From positions 27,528,001 to 27,592,000 of the forward strand of contig NC_043010.1 of the NCBI RefSeq assembly GCF_006345805.1: a stretch of 64,000 nt of DNA. Reading direction: 5' to 3'. Shown one piece after another: positions 3,201 to 64,000 of the stretch. The first letter of the stretch is position 1; each line of letters begins with the position of its first letter. The stretch is from Octopus sinensis (taxonomy: Eukaryota). Position numbers and translations under genes: made by a program. The notes below the pieces were generated by a model. It had not been told where the DNA came from. It ran no database searches and saw nothing but the letters and a program-made list of their open reading frames with translations.

Positions 3201-3890
3201 TGTTGTTAACAAACGACAATAAGTGATTGTTTATGGTAACAAAACGACAATAATGATTTTTTAAAAAAAAACCTTAGAAGATTTGACGTCAAAGTTAGAT
3301 AGTAGGAAGAGAAGGGTTAAAGGAATAATAGGTAGGGAACAAGTGGAAAGGGAAGGTATGTTGATTAAGAACGTTCAAAGGCTTAGGAAAGAATTTCACT
3401 ATTGAAGTGGAGTGTATGTTAAGCTAATTGTTCAAAGGCATGCCTAGTCGTAATCATTTGTAGAGTAAAAAGTATGTTTCTGCCAGTGCTTACATTTATA
3501 GGATTTCTCTATGAGTGTGTGTTTATTGTCACTTATTGTCGTTTGTTTACCATGTAGTCAGTCATCAAAATTTTCTTTGTCTTGTTGCCGAGAGAGGCTC
3601 CCTTTCTTTCCTGATGAGAAGATTGCATCATACACCCTTTATTCCTTGGGAATGAAACATGTGGTCTTCGAAACATATGTCGAGAGTAAAGGATTTTGTT
3701 AACATCTTCGTTCGACTCCATTTTTTTCATTTATTCATATATACACACAAATTTCTGCAAATGAACCCGAAGTTTCTACCCTTGAACAGGGTCTTCAACC
3801 GTGTTTCTTATGCGAATTTGCTACCCTGGTATCGGTTCAACGAATTTTCCATGCTGACGATAAACATAGGATAATTCATTCACCTATTGA
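3201..3890 (+). mobile_element. Non-coding PLE pLTR-like remnant, copy 1 of a ~1.19 kb tandem duplication
   Basis: Flanked by (TA)n, contains a hammerhead, and its 5' end is a short inverted copy of ~3525-3552. Repeated at 4396-5090. Confidence 0.6.
3601..3692 (+). ncRNA. Type I hammerhead ribozyme
   Basis: ctttc-CTGATGA-stem II GAAGATTGCAT/ATGTGGTCTTC-GAAA-CATATG (palindromic stem III)-TC|gagag. Canonical core with a GUC cleavage triplet. Confidence 0.8.
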
Positions 3891-3946
3891 AATATATATA
3901 TAATATATATTATATATATATTATAATATATAAGCCTTGTGAGTGG

Positions 3947-4395: not shown

Positions 4396-5090
4396 TGTTG
4401 TTAACAAAACACAATAGTGATTGTTTATGGTAAACAAACGACAATAAGTGATTTTTTAAAAAAAAACCTTAGAAGATTTGACGTCAAAGTTAGATAGTAG
4501 GAAGAGAAGGGTTAAAGGAATAATAGGTAGGGAACAAGTGGAAAGGGAGGGTATGTTGATTAAGAACGTTCAAAGGCTTAGGAAAGAATTTCACTATTGA
4601 AGTGGAGTGTATGTTAAGCTAATTGTTCAAAGCACGATGCTATCGTAATCATTTGTAAGAGTAACAAGTTTGTCTGCCAGTGCTTACATTTTAGGATTTC
4701 TCTATGAGTGTGTTTATTGTCACTTATTGTCGTTTGTTTACCATGTAGTCAGTCATCAAAATTTTTCTTGTCTTTGTTGCCGAGAGAGGCTCCCTTTCTT
4801 TCCTGATGAGAAGATGCATCAACATACACCCTTATATTCCTTTGGATGAACCATGTGGTCTTCGAAACATATGTCGAGAGTAAAGGAATTTTGTTAACAT
4901 CTTCGTTCGACTCCATTTTTTTCATTTATTCATAATAACACACAAATTTCTGCAAATGAACCCGAAGTTTCTACCCTTGAACAGGTCACTTCAACCGTGT
5001 TTTTCTTATGCGAATTTGCTACCCTGGTATCGGTTCAACGAATTTTCCATGCTGACGATAAACTAGGATAATTCATTCACCTATTGAAAT
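4396..5090 (+). mobile_element. Non-coding PLE pLTR-like remnant, copy 2
   Basis: Duplicate of 3201-3890, differing mostly by small indels. Confidence 0.6.
4793..4886 (+). ncRNA. Type I hammerhead ribozyme (duplicate)
   Basis: CTGATGA at 4803, GAAA at 4864, then CATATG-TC|GAGAG; same fold as 3601. Confidence 0.8.
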
Positions 5091-7759: not shown

Positions 7760-8107
7760 TATAATTCTTAAAATTAATATAGGTTAGGTAAAATTAAAGA
7801 ATTTTTTTCTACCAGTGGCCTAGCATCTATACAAAGTCAATAGACATATTTTTCATATAAAATTAGTGTACATTTATGTACAAAAAGGGGTGTGCCTTAA
7901 CAGGTTGCCTTACATGCTAGAAGGAACAGTTAAAAGTCCAAACGACAGTTAAGAGAAATTTCGAAGGGAAGGAAAAATTAAAATTAAAATATTTACCAAA
8001 TGTTTTTATTTTTCATTCCCTTCGAAATTGCTCATAACTGTGGTTTGGACTTTTGACTGTTCCTTCTAGCATGTAAGGCGACCTGTTAAGGTTCACCTCT
8101 TTTTGTG
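7760..8107. mobile_element. Fold-back PLE-derived element (inverted arms ~7879-7980 / 8004-8107)
   Basis: About 100 bp imperfect inverted repeat. The left terminus aatataggtt...gaattttt...accagtggcctag resembles 18015-18076. Confidence 0.6.
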
Positions 8108-8159
8108 TTTAAATGTGTACACAAACACACACACACACACACACACACACAGATTATTT

Positions 8160-12669: not shown

Positions 12670-14460
12670 GTAAGATCATGGAGAACCACACTAACTCTGA
12701 ACAGTGACAGTGAATCCCTAAATGCTGGTGATGTAAAAATTTCGTGTGGCATTTTCCAGGGTGACTCACTGTCACCACTCCTCTTTTGTTTATCCTTAAT
12801 ACCTCTCTCAAAGCTGCTCAATGACGCGCAGTACGGGTATAAAATGTTTGATAAAATATAAATCATCTCGTTTACATGGATGATTAAAGCTTTTTGCAAA
12901 AAATGATCAACAACTCAAGGGCTTACTAGCGATAGTCAAACAATTCAGTGACGACATCAGAATGCAATTCGGCCTCGATAAATGTGCAAAGGCTACCTTT
13001 ATCAAAGGAAAAATGACAGAAACATCTAACGTTAACCTTGACCAACAGAATGTTCATAAAAGAACTAGACCCAGCGGAGAGCTACAAGTACCTAGGGGTA
13101 ATTGAAGGGAACGGAATAAGGCATTCAGAGATGAAGGAAAGGATCAGGAGAGAATGCTATCGAAGAGTGAGAGCAATACTCAAGACAGAGCTGAATGCAA
13201 GAAACAGGATCGAAGCAATCAATGCATTAGCTATACCAGTCGTGACTTACAGTTTCAATATTGTTAACTGGTCAATTACTGAAATATGTCAGCTCGACAG
13301 AAAAATAAGGAAACTGTTGACAATGCATAGAATGCACCACCCTAAGGCAGATACAGAACGACTCTATCTGCCAAGAAAAGAGGGAGGCCGTGGTCTTTTG
13401 CAACTGGCAATAACAATGAAGATTGCTACAATTGGCCTAGACACCTACCTGAAAAACTCTGAGGACTGGATGTTAAAACTTGTCTCAAAACATGAAAACA
13501 AGAAAGCATCATACTCAGTCACAAAACAGCAAAGGAATATCTAAGTGATTCCGAATACAACCAATTTCGGAATTAGAGATAGACATACAAGAAACAAGCA
13601 CAGAAAAAGCTAGGCGCATGAAAACCCGTGCCAAAACTGCGGCCTAGATATTCTGAATAATAAATGGCAAGAAAAACCTCTCTACGGCAAATACCCAAAG
13701 AGAGCGAATAATGCAGATATCGACAAAGCCCTGACCCATCAATGGCTAATGGCCTCTGGCTTAAAATCTGAAACAGAGGGGTTTATCATAGCAGCTCAAG
13801 ATCATGCCTACCAACAAGAAACTACCAGGCCAACATATTAAGATCAGAAGCAGTCCAACGTGTCGTGTATGCAAGCAACAAAATGAAACCATTGACCATG
13901 TGGTCTCCAAGTGCAGTCTTCTAGCGCCTACAGAGTATCTCAACAGCACGATAGAGCTGCACAATATATTCACTGGGTAATCTGTAAAAACCTGGATTTG
14001 CCCCATGAAAAAAACTGGTGGGAACACAAACCACCCCCAGTGCTTGAAAATGACCACATCTCACTCCTCTGGAACTTCACTTCAAACTGACATGAAGATA
14101 GATGCAAATAGGCCAGACATCATATTGAAAGACTTCAAACAAAGAACATGCCTCCTCATTGATATGACTGTCCCAATCGATATAAACGTATCTGTCAGGA
14201 CCTACCAAAAACTGAGCAAATATAAAGATCTTGAAATAGAAATCAGCAAAATGTGGAAGCTGAAGACTAAAACAATACCTGTTGTCATAGGTGCCCTGTG
14301 AATGATAGCAAAAGGGGCTGATAGCTACCTAACTCAGATACCAGTAAACCCAAAAATGGCAGAAGTTCAAAAGATAGTGCTCATGGGAACTGCTCATATC
14401 CTACGCAAAATACTCTCTATGTAACCTCAAGGTTTAAAACAACCATAATTTTCGGTTTAA
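12670..14460 (+). mobile_element. 5'-truncated R4/Dong LINE (RT C-half, knuckle, REL; disrupted)
   Basis: GIFQGDSLSPLLF, HLVYMDD, YKYLG, RLYLPRKEGGRGL, NRPDII, KYKDL, IPVVIGAL; stop at ~14424. Confidence 0.92.
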
Positions 14461-14557
14461 AAAAAAAAAAAAAAAAAAAAAAACCTTTTTTTTTTTTTTA
14501 ACCGAAATTATGGTTGTTTTAAACCTTGAGGTTACATAGAGAGTATTTTGCGTAGGA
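14399..14557. repeat. Near-perfect inverted duplication of the LINE 3' end around an A-run/T-run
   Basis: cctacgcaaaatac...cggtttA(n)-cc-T(n)aaccg...gtattttgcgtagg. Confidence 0.9.
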
Positions 14558-17592: not shown

Positions 17593-17630
17593 GTATATAC
17601 ATACATACATATATATATATATATTCATAT

Positions 17631-18574
17631 AGCAAAATCAAGGAACGGCCATAATAGGCCATTCACCCACTAGAAATAACAGCCAAGGCTTCAACCGCAA
17701 AACAACAATTATTAATTCCGTAAACCAGGAAAAATTAAAAAAAACATTTACCCTGTAATTCTTTATACGATGCACCGTTTCTTCTATTGTTTAATGGTAA
17801 ACTAACCTGATTAAATTAAATCAAGCTAGTCTTCCATAGGCCGATAGATTCATCAGTAAAGAACAGCCAGATCGGAGCAGATATTTACACGAGGCACTTC
17901 TACCACTGTCTCGGCAATATCTTACCTAAAATTTTCAAATCATCGCACTCGCGCCAAATTTATCGGCAGCAAATATAAGCCGCCGATTCCATTACGGAAT
18001 TAACCAGAAAATTCATAATTAATCAATATAGGGTGGCAAAAAATTTCGCAGAATTTTTTTGCCACCAGCGGCCTAGTGGGAAAAAATTAAATAGTCATAG
18101 ACCATTTATAAATTCAACAGCAAAATCAAGGAACGGCCATAATAGGCCATTCACCCACTAGAAATAACAGCCAAGGCTTCAACCGCAAAACAACAATTAT
18201 TAATTCCGTAAACCAGGAGAAAATTTAAAAAAAAAAACATTTACCCTGTAATTCTTTATACGATGCACCGTTTCTTCTATTGTTTAATGGTAAACTAACC
18301 TGATTAAATTAAATCAAGCTAGTCTTCCATAGGCCGATAGAATTACAGGGTAAATGTTTTTTTAATTTTCTCCTGGTTTACGGAATTAATAATTGTTGTT
18401 TTGCGGTTGAAGCCTTGGCTGTTATTTCTAGTGGGTGAATGGCCTATTATGGCCGTTCCTTGATTTTGCTGTTGAATTTATAAGTGGTCTATGACTATTT
18501 AATTTTTTCCCACTAGGCCGCTGGTGGCAAAAAAATTCTGCGAAATTTTTTGCCACCCTATATTGATTAATTAT
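17631..18574 (-). mobile_element. Non-coding PLE-type element: ~490 bp partial tandem repeat plus inverted terminal arm
   Basis: 17631-17847 is repeated at 18119-18340, and 18339-18574 is the reverse complement of 18015-18255. Flanked by TA repeats; contains a hammerhead. Confidence 0.8.
17759..17863 (-). ncRNA. Type I hammerhead ribozyme
   Basis: ttcttta-CTGATGA-A.TCTAT...ATAGA.A-GAAA-CGG(TGCA)TCG-TA|taaagaa. Perfect 7-bp stem I and a GUA triplet. Confidence 0.8.
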
Positions 18575-23007: not shown

Positions 23008-23038
<31 letters not shown>

Positions 23039-23039
23039 A

Positions 23040-23378
23040 ATCAATAAATGGTGGGGTTGTGTTGCCCGCACGTGGAGAAATGATAGGCGAGGAAAAATTA
23101 TAAAAAGGCAGAACGCTAAATTGAAGGTAAATTTTAATAAAAGTGGGTGTATGGAAAATATAAGTTTATTATTACTTTTTGGAAAAAAACATTGTAAATT
23201 TCTTTTTTCCCCTTCCTCAATTTTTTAAAAATTTCTTTTCACCTTTCAATTCTTGAAAATTTGCTTTGCGATGAAAACCGATTAGAGTTAATATTTATTA
23301 AATTTTCCATACACCCATTTTTATTAAAGTTTACCTTCAATTTAGCATTCTGCCTTTTTATAATTTTTCCTCGCCTAT
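23040..23378 (+). mobile_element. Fold-back PLE-derived element (arms ~23089-23175 / 23285-23378)
   Basis: ataggcgaggaaaaattataaaaaggcaga...gtatggaaaat is inverted at the right end; a hammerhead lies in the spacer. Confidence 0.65.
23248..23289 (+). ncRNA. Minimal hammerhead, U3:A8 variant
   Basis: aattc-TTGAAAA-T.TTGC(TTT)GCGA.T-GAAA-ACCGAT-TA|gagtt. Confidence 0.55.
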
Positions 23379-24362: not shown

Positions 24363-24886
24363 GTATATTCTCTTTACTCGTTTCAGCCATGCGGTTGCGG
24401 TCATACTGGAACACCAGCGCTAAATCCGAACAGTGCGAAAGTACTCAACTATGCATTACTGGATACATATTCTTTGTTTGTTTCATGCATTAGGGAATTT
24501 ATTTAACGTTCCCATATGAAAGGCTTGATAATTGTTGAGAGATTCTTCTTTACCTCTACATGAAACCGTTGGTTGCCTTGTTAACACCGAAATAAAGTAT
24601 ATAAATGTGTGTGTGTAAATATATATATATGTTGGGGGGTGCGTGTGTGTGTGTGTATTAAAATACTGAGGGTAGAAATTGATATCAATCAATTAATATC
24701 AATTTAAAAGATCCGAAGATTTAGAAATTATTTTAAAATTAATAAGAGGAATGACCACTAAAGTGGATTTCTATACGCTAGAAATAGACGTCAAATCACC
24801 TTAACACAAAGAGCACTGGGGTTGTTGTAATCGACTAGATCCCTCCTCGAAATTGTTGTCCTTGTGCCAAAATTTTGAAACCTATA

Positions 24887-24939
<53 letters not shown>

Positions 24940-24940
<1 letters not shown>

Positions 24941-25541
24941 TTACAATTAATAAGAGGAATGACCACTAAAGCGGATTCCTATACGCTAGAAATAGACGTC
25001 AAATCACCTTAACACAAAGAGTGTGTTCTCAAGAAAGAAAAACTAGCAAACGCCAAAATGTAAAAAATAAGCAAGGCAAATGAAAATTTACAAAATAAAA
25101 CGATTACCTACGTATCTGGATTTCATTATTAATACTTGCAAAATGCAAAATGCAAGATGCAAGATGCAAGTATCTGTAAATCCTCAGCGTAGTCTGTCGT
25201 ATTTCGAAATATATTTTACAGAACTATACACAGAAACGTTTTCCCAAAATATACAGTTCTACAAAATATATTTGTGGTACTTTTCAAATGCCTCACTTTG
25301 GCGCGCTAGTGCCGAAAAACGACCCTGCAGATAATAAATTACCGCAGTTAATTCACCGGTTTGAGAACATTACGTAGGTAATCGTTTTATTTTGTAAATT
25401 TTCATTTGCCTTGCTTATTTTTTACATTTTGGCGTTTGCTGGTTTTTCTTTCTTGAGAACACACTTTTTGTGGTAAGGCGATTTGACGTCTATTTCTAGC
25501 GTATAAGAATCCACTTTAGTGGTCATTCCTCTTATTAATTG

Positions 25542-25545
<4 letters not shown>
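24940..25545 (-). mobile_element. Fold-back element with ~175 bp inverted arms (24940-25114 / 25371-25545) in (TA)n
   Basis: Arms are reverse complements and a hammerhead abuts the left arm. Partial extra copy at ~24737-24812. Confidence 0.85.
25108..25192 (-). ncRNA. Type I hammerhead ribozyme
   Basis: ctacg-CTGAGGA-T.TTA..GATACTTGCA/TGCAAGTATT..TAA.T-GAAA-TCCAGA-TA|cgtag. Confidence 0.78.
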
Positions 25546-25577
<32 letters not shown>

Positions 25578-26253: not shown

Positions 26254-26474
26254 TAAAGTGATAGTATGTTGTCAACTTAATATGACAGTCCCATGAAAGG
26301 GAAGAATGCTACTGTTGTTTAGCCCTAGGAAACACCGTTTCCTGTTGGACTTGACACATTTCCTGTGTTCTTATGTTTTCAAAGCGGAAACGGTGTTTCC
26401 TAGGGCTAAATAACAGTAGCATTCTTCCCTTTTATGGGACTGTCATATTAAGTTGACAACATGCTGTCACTTTA
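26254..26474. repeat. ~90 bp inverted repeat (MITE or fold-back)
   Basis: gttgtcaacttaatatgacagtccc...aaacaccgtttcc versus ggaaacggtgttt...gggactgtcatattaagttgacaac. Confidence 0.85.
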
Positions 26475-47199: not shown

Positions 47200-50100
47200 T
47201 CTCTATATATATAAAACTGAGAATGTGTGTCTATTTGTCTGTCTGTCTGTGGGTTTCCCTAAAACTTGAGAACTACACAACCAATTTCATTCAAATTTTA
47301 CACATGCCTTAATTAAGGTCCGGGGAGTGTCATCGGCAAAAAAATCTTAACTTTTTCCCTAGGGTGACCCCACAGCAATATCATATCTTCTCCACTATTT
47401 CAGTATTACGTGTTAAAAGTGAAACAAAAACATCTCTTTTGTAATACAGACACTTTCACTTTAATACTGAAACTATTAAAGTGAAAGTATTATATAACAG
47501 GGATGAACTATTAACAATGGTCATCCATTTTACTAGAAGAAGATCCGCTATGGTCTTATATGCTACACCTCTGGTTTTCAATTCATATTAATCAAATTAA
47601 TATTCAATTTTTCACCCTTATTATGTGCGTGTGTATTAGCAATTCGTATAAAATTGCATCAATGACTTGAACTTGAATAAGTGGTTTCACATAAATGGAG
47701 ATAAATTAAAAAGGTTTGTTGTTATTACTATTACTGTTTGACTATTGTAATCACGTTTGTTGGTTCCTCGTAAGGGAAACGTTGTTGTGTTGCATTTGTT
47801 AAATAATTGTAAACCGTAACCCTCCCCCTTTCGGAGAAGGGGCTTTGGTTATTGTTTAAAAATTGAATTGTGTCCCTGTTTGGGGAAATTGACAATATTT
47901 TCACCGTCTTTACGGAAGCATTTTTGTTAAAATGCCTTCGATAGAAGAAAGTCCAAAAATGAATTTCGCTGCAGCCGTACACTTCTATACAAGAGGGAGG
48001 ACAAGATCCAATTGATCGAAATTGCAAGAGACGGGCCTATAATTCCAGTCTGTTATATATTTTGAGTATTATTATCACTAGCGATATCAAGATATAACTT
48101 TGTATTTTGTATTTTATGTGTAGATGTATATATATAGATGTACATGTAATATGTACACATATACATACACATATATACATGCATAATATATCTACCCATA
48201 CACACATACATACACACACACACATACATAGGGGCAGGTGTGGTTGTGTGGTAACAAACTACGTTCCAAACACATGGTCCTGGGTTCAGTCCCACTGTGT
48301 GGTGACTTAGCATGTGTCTTCTGCTGTAGCCAACAAAAGCCTTCTCAGTGGATTCTGTACATATATACAGGCACACATACATATATATACTTGCATACGT
48401 ACATATTCGGCATAAACACTCTACCACTACAACTAATAACTGTTGGGAACACTGTCAAACCTGCCTTACATTCGAACCGAAATCTCAACGCCCGAGTTTT
48501 CCATCTGAAGTTAATCTCTCTCATGGAGCTCATACAAAAAGGGCAAGTCTTTGGCCCCATACAATGTGACATGTACACAATCGAGTGGCAAAAAAGGGGC
48601 CTTCCACATGCTCATATCCTGCTTTGGCTCTCAGCGAAGATCAATTCCAATGACATCGACAAGATAATCTCTTCAGAGCTTCCTGATCCAGCTTTAGACA
48701 AAGAACTATACGAAATAGTTAAAGCAAACATGGTCCATGTGGGCGTGGATTCAACATAAACACACCATGCTTGAAGGACAGCATATGTTTAAAAAGATTT
48801 CCAAGGAGGTTCCTACAAGAAACTCAGGCAGGTGCTGATGGGTATCCATCATACAGACGCAGAAAACCAGAAGACGGAGGTTTCACAGCAACTATCGGAC
48901 AGCACGATATTGATAATAGATGGATTGTTCCATACTGCCCACTCCTGTCAAAGACTTTCTATGCCCACATCAACATTGAGTTTTGCAAATCCGTTAAATC
49001 CATCAAGTACGTTTGCAAATATGTAAACAAGGGTTCTGACGCTGCAATGTTTGAACTTCAACAAGAATACTGCCAGGATTAGGTGACGCATTATCAGGTG
49101 GGACGGTACATAAGTAGCAACGAGGCTTTCTGGCGCATCTTTGGCTCCAATTCACCAACGACACCCCGCCATTCAACAGCTTGCAGTGCACCTGGAATAT
49201 GGTCAAAGAGTGTACTTCACCGATGCTAATGCTTCTCTGTTGGCAGAGGAACCAAGGGATAGCACACTCACTGCATTCTTCAAGCTTTGTCAAGTGGATC
49301 CATTCGCTCAAACCTTGCTGTATCCACAGATTCCATCGTACTACACTTGGAATGGAAAATAAATGGGCCCCACGGAAAGCAGGTCAAAATGTTCATGGAT
49401 ACCCTGGCATTAAGTTTCACACTTGCCTTGGGCGAGTATACACAGTGCATCCCACTCAACAAGAGTGCTTCTACCTTCGTCTACTACTGCATGAGGTCAG
49501 AGGATCAACGTCTTTCAGGCCCTAAAAACCGTTCATGGACATGTCTGCACAACATACAGAGAAGCCTGCTATCGACAAGGTCTGTTAGAAGATGGTGCAC
49601 AATGGGATGCAACTTTAGGAGAGGCTGCTTTATCACAATCACCTAAAAGTCTCAGGGCACTATTTGCAGTATTACTACAGGCATGCGAACTGTGTGATCC
49701 GGCCACTCTATGGCTCAAATATAGAGACAACCTGGCTGAAGACTTTCAGCGCCAAGCTCAACTGCCCTATCCTGACATGGAGGGTATCAGCAATGTAGTC
49801 TATAACAAAACACTCATTGACATTGAAGACAGAATTGCTAAACTGGGTGGAAATGAATTGTCGACGTATGGCCTGCCACAAGCATTCAGGTCAGGGTCAA
49901 ATAGCCCTCCCACTGATGTCATTCGTGAAACAACCTACAACACTCAAGCGTTTTCAAAGTACATTGTTGAAAATGAGCCTACATTACTTCCGGACCAGCT
50001 GCAGCCCTACAGAACTATTCTTAACAGTGTACGCCAACGCGAGGGACGAATCTTCTTCCTCGATGCTCCTGGAGAGACAGGTAAAACATTTATTACAAAG

Positions 50101-51520
50101 ATTCTCCTTGCAGAAGTTAGGCAGCATCAGGACATTGCAGTAGCTGTAGCCTCCTCTGGCATTGCAGCTACTTTGTTACCCGGTGGCAGGACAGCACACT
50201 CAACTTTTAAACTCCCTCTCAATTTAGCAGCATCCGAAATGCCTTCATGCAACATCAACAAAAGCTCAGATCAGAGACAAGTACTTAAAATGTGTCATCT
50301 AATTGTCTGGGATGCGTGCACTATGGCTCACAAGGGAGCTTTGGAAGCATTAGATAGAGCCCTGAAAGACATCCGAGACTGTCAGGCTCCAATGGGAGGT
50401 GTAACGCTTCTGTTGTCAGGTGATTTCAGGCAAACTCTTCCTGTCATTCCGAAAGGCACTAGAGCAGATGAAGTCCAAGCATGCCTGAATTCCTCTACCC
50501 TATGGCATCATGTTACAATCCTCAGTCTCACCACTAACATGAGAGCTCAGCCACACGGCGACAAAATGTCCACAAAGTTTACACAAGACATTTTGACACT
50601 TGGTGAAGGCAATATGCCTCTCGATGCTGCAGGACAAATGGAAGTGTGGTCATTTTCCTCTGTTGTTAATTCTGTAGATGACCTCAAAAACAAAGTCTTT
50701 CCCAACTTCACACAAAACTACCAAAATCACAATTGGCTGTGTGAAAGAGAAATATTAGCTCCAAAAAACGTCGCTGTTAACAAAATTAATCAACAGCTAA
50801 TGCATTCTCTTCCCGGCACTATACACACTTACAAGTCTGTTGATACAATTCCAGATACAAATGAAGTTGTGAACTATCCTCCTGAATTTCTCAATTCACT
50901 GGAGCCTCCTGGACTACCACCACACATATTAGCACTTAAAGTTGGAACTCCTGTAATGCTACTCCGCAATCTGGAACCACCAAGACTTTGCAATGGAACA
51001 CGATTGGTGATAAAGAAAATGATGTCACACGTTATCGAGGCGATCATTCTTTCTGGATGTGGAAAAGGTGATGACGTCTTTATTCCAAGAATTCCTCTTA
51101 CTCCATCAGGAGCAGAAATTCCATTTACATCCGGAAGACTGCAATTCCCCCTTCGTGTCAGCTTTGCCATGTGCATTAACAAATCTCAGGGTCAAATCCT
51201 CTCTGTAGCTGGTCTTCTCTTGGAAGAGCCCTGCTTCTCACATGGGCAACTGTATGTTGGCTGCTCAAGAGTAGGAACAAAAGAAACCTTTTTGTATATG
51301 CTCCACAAGGAAAAACAAGGAACATTGTTTACAACGAGGTGTTATAATCTCAACTGCCAGGAGGTATATACATGATCCCCTTTTTTTAAACAAACTTCAT
51401 GTACTTTCATGTATTTATATTAATATACATGTGTGTGTGTGTGTGTATCCATATATATATAACAGAAAAGTCTAATTCTTCAATTGAATTTAACTGGGCA
51501 ACGCCGGGTAACTCTGCTAG
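47200..51520 (+). mobile_element. Helitron, internally deleted, both termini present
   Basis: 5' TC(TCTATATATATAAAA); 3' hairpin ctgggcaacgccggg plus CTAG|T; RepHel remnants; SINE head inserted at ~48230-48360. Confidence 0.92.
48460..51340 (+). pseudogene. Helitron RepHel: HUH endonuclease plus Pif1-family helicase (frameshifted)
   Basis: EWQKRGLPHAHILLW, KYVCKYVNKG, FLDAPGETGKT, SSGIAATLL, GRTAHS, GDFRQTLPV, LCNGTRL, INKSQGQ, HGQLYV..SR. Confidence 0.93.
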
Positions 51521-52589: not shown

Positions 52590-52595
<6 letters not shown>

Positions 52596-52700
52596 GGAGC
52601 TTCTACAGACTAGAACGTTCATCAAGAGAAATCTCCAGGAGCTTCCTGAAGATTTCTCTTGAATGAAACAGTTCTAGTCCTGTAGAAGCTCTTCTATATA
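52590..52700. repeat. Spacer-less ~55 bp palindrome in (TA)n centred next to a hammerhead-like core
   Basis: agaaggagcttctacag...ccagg|agctt|cCTGAAGAtttctcttgaatGAAACAGTTctag...ctgtagaagctcttct. Confidence 0.75.
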
Positions 52701-55896: not shown

Positions 55897-57320
55897 AGAC
55901 AGAGAGATAGGTAGAGAGGGAGAGAGAGAGAAGGGGATACCCTTCCTATTCACCATTCATTTATTTATTTATTTAGTCATTTACCATTGTATTGGAACGG
56001 GTTTAAGGGTGGTGGCCTTTTCAAATAACAAAAAACAGGTGCGGCGTGGTCATCGTTGAATGTCTTTTTGCTTCCTCTTTCCTTCTTTTTTCCTCTTTCT
56101 TTCTTTTTCTCCTCTTCGTGTTATATTTAGAATACAACATGTACTGTCTCCTAATTTCTTTCAAACATTCAATTTTGGAGAGAATTTTTGATGAAACGCA
56201 CGTTCTGCAGGAAAACACATTAGTATAATATTTGCAAATTAAACATTTTATTAAAAATAAATAAATAAAAACAATAAAATTATATAAAAGATATAGATAT
56301 ATATAAGTAAAGCTAAAGCAGCCCAATGCTACACATATTTATATCTGAACTTTTATAGAGGTGAGCCACTTCTGGAATAAAAAATGCAAATTCTCCGCTT
56401 TACCTTTAAACATTCAATTTTGGAGAGAATCCTTTGATGAAGTGTGTGTGTCTGTGTGTGTGAGTGTGTGAGTATGTGAGTGTGCGTGTGTGTGTGTGAG
56501 TGTACGTGTGTGTGTGTGTGTTTGGGAACATGTCCACGTTTATACTGCATAACTTCGATCACGCTTCTTTCAGTTTCATGTTTTTGCATTAGAGAACATT
56601 AGTGTAACACTTACAATCTAGAGGAACACACAAACCTCTGAACATCTCAATGCCACTCATATACACCTGAATATTTACAGGGATGAGCATTATGTTTCCG
56701 ACATTTGAGTTATATTTAGAATACAAAATGTAGTCTCCGCTTTTCTCTCAAACATTCAATTTTGGAGAGAAGTTTTTGATGAAATGTAATTTCATTGCTT
56801 TTTGGTATTGCGGATCGTCCTGTGCACATTTGTAAAAGGGAAAAATTATGAATTTTCCGTCGCTGCATATTTCCAAATACTTGCGTAATTCCTCTTATCG
56901 GATATGTTGCCTGTGGATTCTTTCACGTTGGCAGAGGGAATTATTTGTTTCCCCAATGTTTAATTATTTGTTTGCAGTTTGGACATGTAATGCTGTATAT
57001 GAGGTTTTGCGTTTTGCAGTTCATATCTGCATTTATTTTGAAAAGTGATCCTCTCTTGAATTTTACGTGGGAACCACTTTCCAAGTATTTGAAGTTGTTG
57101 ATGTTGTTTGCATGTTTCACATCTCCTATCTCCACATTCTTTAACTAAGAATTCTGATTCATTCTCTGATTTGAGTTCTGCCTTTGTGAGGTGTTTTTTA
57201 AAGATTTTTTGGTTGGCGTCTGCTATTCCGTAAAGTGTTTTTGAATCAGATTTTTCATTTTTGGGCTTTGTAGGAATATAGGTAAGTTCGATTTTATGGC
57301 TTGAAAGATGAATAACCAAT
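55611..57320 (-). mobile_element. Penelope-like element 3' part (Cys-rich linker, GIY-YIG, partial tandem repeats, hammerhead)
   Basis: KECGDRRCETC, NCKTQNLIYSITCPNC, IGET, FIKNFSPKLN. The ORF end is repeated at ~56160, 56405 and 56750. Confidence 0.8.
55653..55692 (-). ncRNA. Minimal hammerhead, U3:A8 variant
   Basis: ttat-TTGACAA-GTTCGA(GAA)TCGAAC-GAAA-GCGC-TA|ataa. Confidence 0.72.
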
Positions 57321-57399
57321 ATATGTATATATACACATATACGAAAAAAAGAAATTAACTTGTATCAGCTAAACTTTCTTGAATCAATTCTCCGTGCGA

Positions 57400-60300: not shown

Positions 60301-60790
60301 TTAGTGGCGCAAAATTTCAAGCACTCTGCTATCAACCCACAAACAAACTACAGCTGAAGTACACGGGACCAGCAGGCAATGTAATCCCAGAGTCAGAGTC
60401 GGTGTGGGACCTGGGAATCCACACGAGCAACAACGCAACTTTCCATGTGCACATTGTTCAGATGGCAACACTATGCAGGCGGATGGCAGGTTGGACCCTT
60501 AGATTCTTCAGGACCAGGAACAGAGACACGAGACTTCTGCTTTGGAAAACCTTTGTACTCAGTAGTCTGGACTACTGCTCCCAATTGTGGTCTCCAAAGA
60601 GTGTAAAACAGAGTGTAAATCTAATTGCAGAAGTAGAAGCGATCCAACGCCACTACACAAAGAAAATAGACTCAGTAAAACACATGGGCTACTGGTTGAA
60701 GAAACTGGGACTCTACTCCCTGGAGAGAAGACGTGAGAGATATATAGTGCTATACATATGGAAAATAATGGAGAGCCTAGCCCCAAATTT
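57400..60790 (+). mobile_element. Near full-length decayed CR1-like LINE (5' UTR repeats, ORF1, APE, RT)
   Basis: ORF1 from 57721; APE motifs Y.PP, LMGELNFP, NILDL, SDH; RT motifs NYRPVSLTS, YLDFAKAFDKVDH, DLG, LDYCSQLWSP, LYSLERRRERY. Confidence 0.88.
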
Positions 60791-62030
60791 CATAAGTACT
60801 ATAGTATTTGCAGCAAGTCAACGATCAAGTTCCCTTACTCTGTAATACCTAACTTTGCTTCGATTATTGCATCAATCAATAGAAGCAAGCTTGCTGGGCA
60901 GGATAGCTGGAAAAGTTCCTTTGAGGATGACCAAGGACCTACGAATAATAATTCTGTAACGCTTAATGCCAATTGTACAAACAGTCTGCCTTTACCGGGT
61001 CTATCGAACCCAAGTAATAAGGGAAGATTTGATGGAATGAAAGAGGGAAACCTGTCTAGAACTGATGATACAAAAAGTAAAGGTAACAATAGAAATAAAA
61101 CAAGGAAAGGCCCCGGGATGAAATATAATTGTAGAAACCTCGAATTATGTCCCTTAGATGGTTCCTGTCCAGTTACTAACGTCATATATAAATGTGTAGT
61201 CAAGGACGAGGATGAGTTAAATAAATTTTATATAGGTAGCACGGTAGATTTTAAGGCTAGATATAGATCGCATATGAGCTCATTTTCTAACGATAAATAT
61301 TGTAATTCAACAACACTTGCATCCCATATACATAATTTGAAGAAGAAGAAGAAGAAGAAGAAGAAGAAGAAGAAGAAGAATTATCTAGAATGGTCTATTA
61401 TCTCAAAAACCCCAAATTTCAAAGGAAATATTAGCAAGTGTAAGCTGTGCATAAGGGAATCCCTTACCATCCTCGGGTGTTATGGACCACACACTCTGAA
61501 TAAATTTACTGATGTGATTCCTTTTTGCATCCATAAATTTTCATCTACGTTCTTAAAAGTGTATAGGAATAAAAAAAGTTGTAGCAAGTAAATAATTTAG
61601 CTCTTACAGGGAATTGAAACCATCGAGGTTGAATTTAATTTAATACACCCATTTATATTGGTTTTTTTAAAGGTTTTTTTTTAACTGTTTTAATTCTGGG
61701 TTTTTTTTTTCGATTATTTGGGCTGGTCTAAGCATGACTTCTTAAATAAGAAACCACGCAGTATTGTGTTAGGTTTGGTTAAGGAGGTCTCACCCTGGTA
61801 CGTGATGTCTGTTTCTTTATTTTTCCCCTGACGAAGGAGTCATTATCGTGATGCGCCCCCGTGCATTAAATACGGTGATGTACCCCTGAAATGGCCATAG
61901 GGAATGTAAATATGGTTTCTTCTTTTTTTGCTTGGACACTGGCTTTTAACTATAGGTTTCCCTTATCTTGAAAAGTAATTTTTAATCGAAAAAATTTCTA
62001 AACGATGAACTTTTATCTTACCTTATATAT
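60790..62030 (+). mobile_element. Penelope-like element 3' part (GIY-YIG ORF to 61591 plus pLTR), joined to the CR1 end
   Basis: NCRNLELCPLDGSCPVTNVIYKC...FYIGST..FKARY..H...CKLCIRE...LN...C.H; a poly-K (AAG)n expansion lies in frame. Confidence 0.88.
61823..61904 (+). ncRNA. Type I hammerhead ribozyme in PLE 3' pLTR
   Basis: ttccc-CTGACGA-AGG..CATTATCG/CGGTGATG..CCT-GAAA-TGGCCA-TA|gggaa. Confidence 0.82.
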
Positions 62031-62382
62031 TATTTATTTATATGCTTCCTACATATATGTATTTTTATATATTTTTATATATCTATATACGTATATATTT
62101 CTTTATATTTTTATGTATTTATTATTCTAGGTGTTGTAATGTTAAAAAAATATATAATATTTAGTCGCTAAAGTATTAATCATTAACTTTTAACCGCAAT
62201 GAACTGTATTCACACATTTTTCTTTTATTTTTCTTATATGCTTGTATTGATGAGTTGTGTTTCATCCTCCGTGGTTTTATGCATGTATATTCTATATGAA
62301 AGAAAAAGCATTATGTGATTCAATGTTCGAGATATGAAATGTTACGTGGATGACCTTATATTTGTTTGTTCTGCAACTATAG

Positions 62383-62430
<48 letters not shown>

Positions 62431-62829: not shown

Positions 62830-64000
62830 AAAAAACCAAGGAAGAAACAATCCTGGTTTCATTTGATGTAGTCAACTTGTATACCAGTATACCTCACATT
62901 ATGGACTGGAGGCAATACAGTTCTGGTTAGACCAATTTCCGGAAGAAATACCAAAAAGGATCAGTAAGGAATTCATTACTAAATCAATTGAATTCATCCT
63001 ACACAATAACCACTTCATGTTTGACAATACATTTTACCGTCAAAAATCCGGAATTGCTATGGGTACAAGGGCAGCACCAGTCATTGCGAACTTAACAATG
63101 GGATACATGGAAATAATCATTTACCAGGAATCTCTATCAATCTTTGGAAACTCCCTCTCTCAATACATAAAAGAGAATTGGAAACGATTCCTAGACGATT
63201 GTTTCATTCTCTGGAATGAAAACATAGATAAACTCCAAAAATTTAAAAACCTATTGAACAGCATAAACCCAAATATACAGTTCACAATGGAATACAACCA
63301 AAAGGAGCTCCCGTTCTTGGATATACTAATTAAAAAAATTAACCTTAAAATAGAAACAGACATTTTTTACAAAGCCACAGACGCCAAACAATACCTTCTT
63401 TTTAATTCATGCCACCCAAGACACACTAAAACAAACATCCCCTTCAACCTTGCAAGAAGGATATGCACAATAGTGTCAGAACAAAATACCAGGAACTTTA
63501 GACTGCAAGAACTCAAAAACACCCTAATTGACAGACATTACCCAGCTCAACTCATAGAGGATGGGATCAGACGTGCAACAGAAATCAACATAGAAACTTT
63601 AAGAAAAGTTCAACACAACAACACACCTTCCCCGAAAATACTACCTTACATATCTACATACAACCCCAGAAACAAAGAAGCCTTCACCATCATCACCCAG
63701 AATTTACCAATACTTCATAAAAACCCAAAATTAAAGGAAATTCTAAACATACACCAAATCATTAAAAGCTACAAACAGCCTAAATCACTAAAAAGATTCT
63801 CACAAAGGCAAAATTGTCTTCTAAAATTACGGATGCAAAAGTAAAAAAATGTGGTAGATCGAACTGTGCAACATGTCCTAACCTATTGGAAGGATCAGAA
63901 TTCTTCTTTAAAGAGGGACAGAAATTCAAGATCAAATCTAACTTTACTTGTGCCTCTGAAAACATAATTTATGTCATTAAATGCTCGGGCTGCCACCAAG
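62830..64000 (+). mobile_element. Penelope-like element RT, linker and start of GIY-YIG (frameshifted; runs off the window)
   Basis: LVSFDVVNLYTSIP, YRQKSGIAMGT, WKRFLDD, LPFLD, SCHP, KKCGRSNCATC, FTCASENIIYVIKCSGC. Confidence 0.93.

Follow-up and report, generated by a model that had tools for sequence, protein, structure and literature searches.

Among described mobile elements, those closest to the element considered here are the Penelope-like elements (PLEs) that carry an inverted pLTR and a tail, namely Penelope/Poseidon, Neptune and Hydra. In the accessible text of PMC8557442 these are described as having an inverted 5'-truncated copy, an optional tail of 30-40 bp and a bias towards (TA)n, with octopus PLEs, including Hydra-1_Obim, that have a palindromic stem III, and the role of the hammerhead in transposition is there called unclear. 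The available part of PMC3846280 describes head-to-head inverted pLTRs and solo pLTRs, for which self-priming is proposed, the origin of the inverted pLTR being left unresolved. As regards the ribozyme, PMC4209133 describes, in the portion available, minimal PLE hammerheads of the dimer type with low activity in vitro, for which a palindromic stem III serves as the mark, and pairs of hammerheads lying on opposite strands 100-700 bp apart. According to the available sections of PMC11167929, the purified protein of an anole PLE cuts and extends both strands, is predicted to dimerise and uses internal initiation; the protein assists hammerhead cleavage, insertion does not require that cleavage, and none of the RNA-seq reads there starts or ends at the cut. 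Animal retrozymes are described as ORF-less derivatives of PLEs in the accessible text of PMC7229834 and of bioRxiv 10.64898/2026.07.22.740005, the latter reporting that 8 of 9 Xenopus retrozyme dimers failed to cleave. A precedent for a ribozyme cut that fixes the 5' junction of an inserted copy is provided by R2, which has a 5' HDV-like ribozyme that in Drosophila reportedly cuts exactly at the junction (PMC3774820, available text). Penelope-like elements make up 6.83% of the O. vulgaris genome (PMC13282606), hammerheads going unmentioned in the accessible part of that source. In the literature searched, whose coverage took in few of the subscription papers, we found no analysis that relates the ends of inverted arms to a hammerhead cut, and the available text of the PLE papers PMC8557442 and PMC3846280 does not connect the inner end of the inverted copy with the ribozyme cut.

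The element lies at 24940-25545 of our window, by which we mean the whole 64,000-nucleotide stretch of Octopus sinensis that was analysed. The window is microsatellite-rich animal DNA, and the 606 bases of the element are set between two unstranded (TA)n tracts (24883-24938 on the left and 25546-25576 on the right), the target microsatellite, on account of which a target-site duplication is unreadable. A preliminary description had reported 175-bp inverted arms in (TA)n, and these are confirmed as a left arm at 24940-25114 and a right arm at 25371-25545, differing at six of the 174 positions compared (24972, 24979, 25006, 25012, 25019 and 25044), the outermost A/T pair matching by inspection and the inner 70 nt being identical. 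Read in the sense of the ribozyme, the left arm (minus strand) is the 3' part, or tail side, of a forward copy, with its 3' end abutting (TA)n; the non-coding 5' region of the same copy occupies 25193-25372 (minus strand), and the right arm (plus strand) is an inverted, 5'-truncated copy that meets the forward copy in a head-to-head joint with a 2-nt TA ambiguity. A spacer of 256 nt separates the arms and the junction contains no palindrome. The element was also said to be ORF-less, which holds, stops being present in all six frames of 24941-25370. With the PLEs of PMC8557442 and PMC3846280, as described in their available text, it has in common the head-to-head inverted 5'-truncated copy, an optional 3' extension, the (TA)n context and a type-I hammerhead near the 3' end with a stem III that is palindromic in the family; it differs from them in being without an ORF and in a tail of ~75 nt, against their 30-40 bp. 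Hammerheads and inverted pLTRs had been invoked as PLE traits, and both are indeed published as such (PMC4209133, PMC8557442 and PMC3846280, in the parts accessible).

The hammerhead motif is located at 25108-25192 on the minus strand, with a predicted cut between 25113 and 25112. The core elements CUGANGA, GAAA and UH and helices I-III are all present: stem I pairs 25192-25188 with 25112-25108 (5 bp), CUGAGGA occupies 25187-25181 and GAAA 25124-25121, AUA|CGUAG stands at the cut, helix II is long with 7-nt repeats in its loop, and helix I together with a predicted extension pairs 25112-25099, that is, +1 to +14 from the cut. Since stem III consists of 3 bp with a loop of only 2 nt, the motif is of the minimal dimer type. 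A strict hammerhead descriptor gave no match in any of 40 block-shuffled windows, a loose one found seven motifs in the real 64-kb window against a mean of 0.25 per shuffled window, and the 121-nt motif region folds at z -3.8, none of 200 shuffles being equally stable. Of the earlier claim of a complete minus-strand hammerhead, the motif, its core and the AUA|CGUAG site stand; the word complete needs qualifying, given that Rfam returned no hammerhead at the gathering score or among 24 matches at E<=10, that helix II is closed in 25125-25180 by U.U instead of G10.1-C11.1, and that two substitutions at 25117-25118 break the stem III palindrome of this copy. The self-duplex of its stem III is worth only -0.8 kcal/mol, its minimum-energy fold pairs away the hammerhead core, the opening of which costs 7.7 kcal/mol, and helix II carries indels private to this copy, whose ribozyme looks damaged in these folding models. 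In the Logan contigs the core and stem I are free of variants among the 40 variants listed (155 further ones lie beyond that list). Compared with the minimal PLE hammerheads of PMC4209133, as far as these are described in the text available, the motif has in common the 5-bp helix I, long helix II, palindromic helix III, loop 3 and predicted activity as a dimer, and departs from them in the missing G10.1-C11.1 pair, the predicted extension of helix I and the mutated palindrome of this copy. The G10.1-C11.1 position is mismatched in three motifs of the window (U.U here, A.A at 17856 and U.U at 52646), possibly a recurrent hammerhead variant in this genome, to judge by these sequences.

On the features tested, the element is neither a MITE nor a member of a ribozyme-delimited family, and is a non-autonomous insertion of PLE type. 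That it originated in the head-to-head manner of PLEs we regard as very likely. In its fuller form the reading is on balance probable: a single insertion of a short, protein-less Penelope-like retroelement would have left two head-to-head copies, both with their 3' ends in (TA)n, the longer crossing the hammerhead and the shorter stopping at the predicted cut. The narrower proposition that the cut caused this arm to end is tentative, with somewhat less than an even chance. By this mechanism, a PLE reverse transcriptase-endonuclease acting in trans would have cleaved (TA)n and started cDNA synthesis on each strand, both cDNAs presumably beginning at the same internal start; one may have run 432 nt through uncut (or religated) RNA, and the other ~172 nt, as far as the 5' end left where RNA had been cleaved in a hammerhead dimer, whereupon the two cDNA ends would have been joined over 0-2 nt of microhomology.

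Other copies of the family were drawn from Logan contigs of the best 4 of 24 listed runs, representing four organisms and three studies, at an identity of at least 82% on 24941-25370. These comprise 1,789 contigs (528, 446, 218 and 597 by run), and the family is abundant in the assemblies of all four organisms. Summed depth across 24956-25030 is 18.6-28.3k (X1) and 19.9-42.9k (X4), and across 25286-25370 it is 84-627 (X1) and 183-1,171 (X4); the arm exceeds the interior in all four runs, the excess being well over tenfold, a ratio of summed contig depths, which are not copy numbers and are inflated in the arm by related subfamilies. Depth declines gradually across 25090-25150, and no pile-up of contig ends is reported. 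Positions 25117-25118 read AT in nearly all the depth, by which stem III of the family is the palindrome AUCAUGAU. Among 11 joints listed, six change strand (24983/25029, 24990/25189, 25004/25112, 25018/25069, 25035/25094 and 25036/25100), all six differing in their ends, and their head-to-head polarity is inferred for two (from side length, record 26) and assumed for the others. The joint 25018/25069 was found in the runs of all four organisms, and may be either an old shared insertion or an amplified sub-variant.

MITEs are short and non-coding, with inverted termini and a TA context. The element has the same layout, its long, near-identical inverted arms, short non-coding interior and TA flanks being what a DNA MITE with 175-bp TIRs targeting TA repeats would have, a hammerhead being there by coincidence. 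This interpretation is largely refuted and very improbable: a uniform MITE would give an arm-to-interior depth of 2:1, far below the excess observed, coverage is polar, inner boundaries and copy lengths vary, no transposase element sharing the TIRs was seen, a lone truncated copy with a longer tail lies 130 bp away, and the left 'TIR' runs on into stem I of the ribozyme. In preferring a retro-element to a DNA MITE the preliminary description is supported by the coverage gradient, the variable joints, the stem III palindrome of the family and the published PLE traits.

The neighbouring copy is a second, 5'-truncated member of the family at 24657-24813 (minus strand), ~130 bp from the fold-back element, in which 81 bp match the left arm at 96% and which ends in (CA)n. 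Its 3' end extends ~75 nt beyond that of the element, in the manner of the optional tail of PLEs, this longer end being seen in one copy only. Head-to-head with it is joined the 3' ~70 nt of a repeat at 24811-24882 (plus strand), of which a longer copy occurs at 1231-1443 and which we take to be SINE-like. Both 3' ends of this chimera of family copy and SINE-like repeat (24657-24882) sit in microsatellites, and it is possibly an insertion made from two RNAs.

For the element itself, two RNA templates for the arms are mildly favoured. The right arm carries the family-majority base at four of the six arm differences, the left arm and the upstream copy have two minority bases in common, the SINE-like joint lies next door, and the anole PLE protein acts on both strands; it is on these grounds that we lean towards two templates, and later mutation with local gene conversion could instead account for the arm differences. 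An inverted arm made from a single RNA, whether through fold-back or self-priming or through a switch of template to the growing cDNA, is quite improbable. Such a route has been proposed for palindromic PLE junctions (in the available part of PMC3846280), would suit the near-perfect hairpin with a 3-nt loop at 52.6 kb described below, and is compatible with the identity of the inner 70 nt of the arms; it is opposed by the 256-nt spacer, by the lack of a palindrome at this junction, and by the six arm differences, whose pattern allies the left arm with the upstream copy and puts the right arm with the majority of the family.

The upstream copy ends in four bases that are identical to those with which the element's junction begins. 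Should this 4-nt overlap be genuine, the forward copy would include the junction TA, the right arm would start exactly at +1, and the monomer would measure ~500 nt, a length that, from the overlap alone, is a lead only. In this context the element can be set beside the non-LTR retrozymes (PMC7229834; bioRxiv 10.64898/2026.07.22.740005), with which, on their available text, it has in common the absence of an ORF, a type-I hammerhead, dispersed monomers and a proposed mobilisation by PLEs. It differs from them as an inverted monomer with a single motif at the locus, not a tandem array, tandem units being found only in a distinct family at 17.6 kb, and likewise in its motif, which has a long helix II and belongs to the minimal PLE type, and in the putative monomer of ~500 nt, against their 170-400 nt.

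The right arm was earlier placed within 2 nt of the predicted cut, and this is borne out, its inner end falling at -2 to +1, 0-2 nt away: the identity of the arms reaches 25114, 2 nt beyond the cut, and when the junction TA is given to the forward copy the arm begins exactly at +1. The further claim, that the ribozyme cut delimits the family, fails. The 12 ends of the six joints lie, relative to the cut, at -77, +1, +13, +19, +44, +77, +78, +84, +95, +109, +123 and +130; one is therefore at the cut (in joint 25004/25112), one reads through it and ten are 13-130 nt downstream, and the shorter arm ends at the cut in none of the six joints. With 12 ends, a single one this close to the cut (within 2 nt) is not significant (geometric truncation, P 0.13; uniform nulls, P 0.15-0.33). 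Three of the 12 fall in +1 to +20, for which P is 0.024-0.029 under geometric and wide uniform nulls and 0.09-0.25 under narrower ones, the interval having been picked post hoc. When three junctions elsewhere in the window are added to the six, an end lies within 2 nt of the cut in one of nine and up to 20 nt downstream of it in five. Outside this tally stand the fold-backs at 14399-14557, 23083-23378 and 26254-26474, in which the scan found no hammerhead, and the motifs at 3611, 4803 and 61828, which lack a tail-out inverted arm. Since helix II of this copy has private indels, some joints upstream of the cut may have been missed.

These ends bear most directly on the strict form of the hypothesis, in which the hammerhead cut sets the limit of the inverted arm in every member of a family of fold-back retro-elements. 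This copy, the Logan end at +1 and the arm at +4 to +7 in the 17.6-kb family agree with it, yet it is largely refuted and has very little probability left, with 11 of 12 ends elsewhere and no shorter Logan arm at the cut. Moreover, the element's own joint, 25370/25114, is absent among the joints listed in the four runs; the query stretch ended there, and two listed contigs overrun its end, by 56 and 22 nt. The cut is read through by the left arm of this copy and by one Logan joint, and both arms of the 52.6-kb hairpin read through theirs. For the family as a whole the cut is at best a preferred stop alongside many ordinary truncations, and does not define the boundary. Unlike R2 (in the available text of PMC3774820), where both the ribozyme and the class of element are others, at most a minority of ends are here at the cut.

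A soft cluster of ends 1-20 nt 3' of the cut (three of the 12, together with two other elements of the window) is suggestive, if post hoc. Since the extended helix I pairs +1 to +14, a polymerase stalling there would yield a similar cluster. An insertion of the same PLE type, head to head, in which the short arm ended near the cut through such stalling at the 3' foot of the helix, or by chance, with no role for cleavage, is an unlikely explanation of this copy. In its favour are the pairing of 25112-25099, the ends at +13, +19, +4 to +7 and (by homology) +14/+17, which are more in keeping with a stall zone than with one bond, the insignificant fit to within 2 nt in other copies, and the predominance of uncut RNA as the substrate in vitro (PMC11167929, available text). 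Against it are two ends exactly at +1 (Logan 25004/25112, and this copy if TA is in the forward copy) and the perfect stem III palindrome kept in the family, as expected under selection for dimer cleavage. A splice donor at +6 was also considered as the stop point; it is at odds with the Logan ends at +1, +13 and +19.

For the reading in which the short arm was made on cut RNA, the exact or 2-nt fit, the second exact end in another copy and the soft cluster make it plausible that the right arm of this copy was so copied. The same reading has to contend with the 11 ends of other copies that lie more than 2 nt from the cut, the lack of any reported pile-up of contig ends, the dependence of the +1 to +20 excess on the null, and a motif that has no G10.1-C11.1 pair. 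It is opposed also by published work, as far as the text of these sources is available: hammerhead mutants left insertion by the anole PLE unchanged in vitro and no RNA-seq ends lay at the cut (PMC11167929), minimal PLE hammerheads are weak in vitro (PMC4209133), and most of the Xenopus dimers stayed uncleaved (bioRxiv 10.64898/2026.07.22.740005).

Several other elements of the window carry hammerheads or PLE features. At 17615-18574 (minus strand) an ORF-less tandem unit of 493 nt has a type-I hammerhead with its core at 17856, the first motif being truncated, and an inverted long-tail arm that ends at +4 to +7 of its own predicted cut, over 3 nt of microhomology. We treat it as a retrozyme-like family distinct from that of the fold-back element, on the strength of tail comparisons with z 1.2 (67/500 shuffles) and, for the long tail, z 0.0 (239/500), and of an nhmmer search that found no match between the two families; the 5' region of the 17.6-kb element bears a weak resemblance to 25193-25372 (z 2.8, 9/500 shuffles). 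A hammerhead-less head-to-head palindrome at 7870-8116 is a tail relative of the 17.6-kb family (z 5.6; E 0.014), with its centre at a GGTAAAT motif, +14/+17 of the cut by homology. The near-perfect hairpin at 52590-52700 (110 bp in (TA)n, with a 3-nt loop) contains a probable hammerhead (motif 52646), has ~12 nt after the cut, and is centred ~44 nt upstream of it, both arms reading through. Perfect palindromic stems III occur in the window motifs at 3611, 4803 and 61828. A duplicated element at 3202-3900 and 4407-5090 (plus strand) has a hammerhead with G-C closing helix II, a palindromic stem III and, at its 5' end, short inverted stubs of internal sequence. The region 23037-23378, with its fold-back at 23083-23378 in (TA)n, shows 81-nt arms with a ~45-nt extension on one of them, a PLE-like layout with no hammerhead.

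At 60737-62385 (plus strand) an ORF remnant that is GIY-YIG-like by inspection is followed ~240 nt on by the hammerhead 61828 with its palindromic stem III, and the region reads as the 3' end of a PLE; its endonuclease-like ORF had no Pfam match and two unnamed homologues. For the ORF at 62867-63844, 226 of 905 candidates proved homologous; of the 120 listed, many have RT or GIY-YIG domains (PF00078 and PF01541) and several are from Octopus or Argonauta, so that, by homology, a PLE reverse transcriptase appears to be encoded in the same window as the element. Frameshifted remnants of PLE RT-endonucleases were seen at 62867-64000 (plus strand) and 56960-57364 (minus strand), the former with a Cys-rich linker, which we take to be like that of Neptune-type elements. 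Pfam gave nothing on six of the eight ORFs tested, both PLE-like ORFs among them. At 49495-51375 (plus strand) there is a 626-aa open frame, on inspection like a Helitron/PIF1-type helicase. An autonomous partner sharing the element's sequence was not found: blastn and nhmmer gave no match between the window's PLE RT element and the fold-back family, and its short motifs are absent from the supplements of PMC8557442 (two motifs) and PMC13282606 (without its TE library). Motif scans of viral, metagenome and prokaryote collections returned 8, 5, 3 and 0 loci, all 16 being chance matches of 16-26 nt, and viral contigs contained no locus matched by the PLE RT profile.

Some shorter signals recur among these families. 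A donor-like GGTAA and an acceptor-like TTCTAG are found in three diverged tails, at 25107-24986 (minus strand), 18244-18150 and 7995-8080, and may delimit a retained intron 3' of the ribozyme; in the element this would be a candidate GT-AG intron of 122 nt inside the arm, at 24986-25107 (minus strand), proposed from its likeness to donor and acceptor motifs. Likewise, ~100 nt upstream of the hammerhead core in both families, at ~25304-25283 and ~17958-17934 (both minus strand), a word that we take to be E2F-like is followed 16-19 nt on by TTTGAA, presumably CHR-like, and together these could form a candidate internal promoter linked to the cell cycle.

As a structure, the element is an ordinary one of PLE type. 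Insertions of this kind look like MITEs and could be annotated wrongly as MITEs, and the distribution of junction ends in this abundant family bears both on the role of the hammerhead and on the origin of the inverted pLTR. A more general model, which we hold to be doubtful, is that PLE hammerheads cut in the germ line within a complex of two RNAs and two proteins, where cleavage in the dimer would shorten one of the co-bound RNAs and, both target strands being primed, the cut RNA would give rise to the short inverted arm. If this were true, junction ends would peak at +1, trimmed by up to 20 nt, and the activity of the ribozyme would be recorded across the genome in inverted pLTR junctions, with thousands of octopus copies from which to read it. 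The locus offers one testable lead, namely whether the RNA that ends up inserted has been cleaved by PLE hammerheads.
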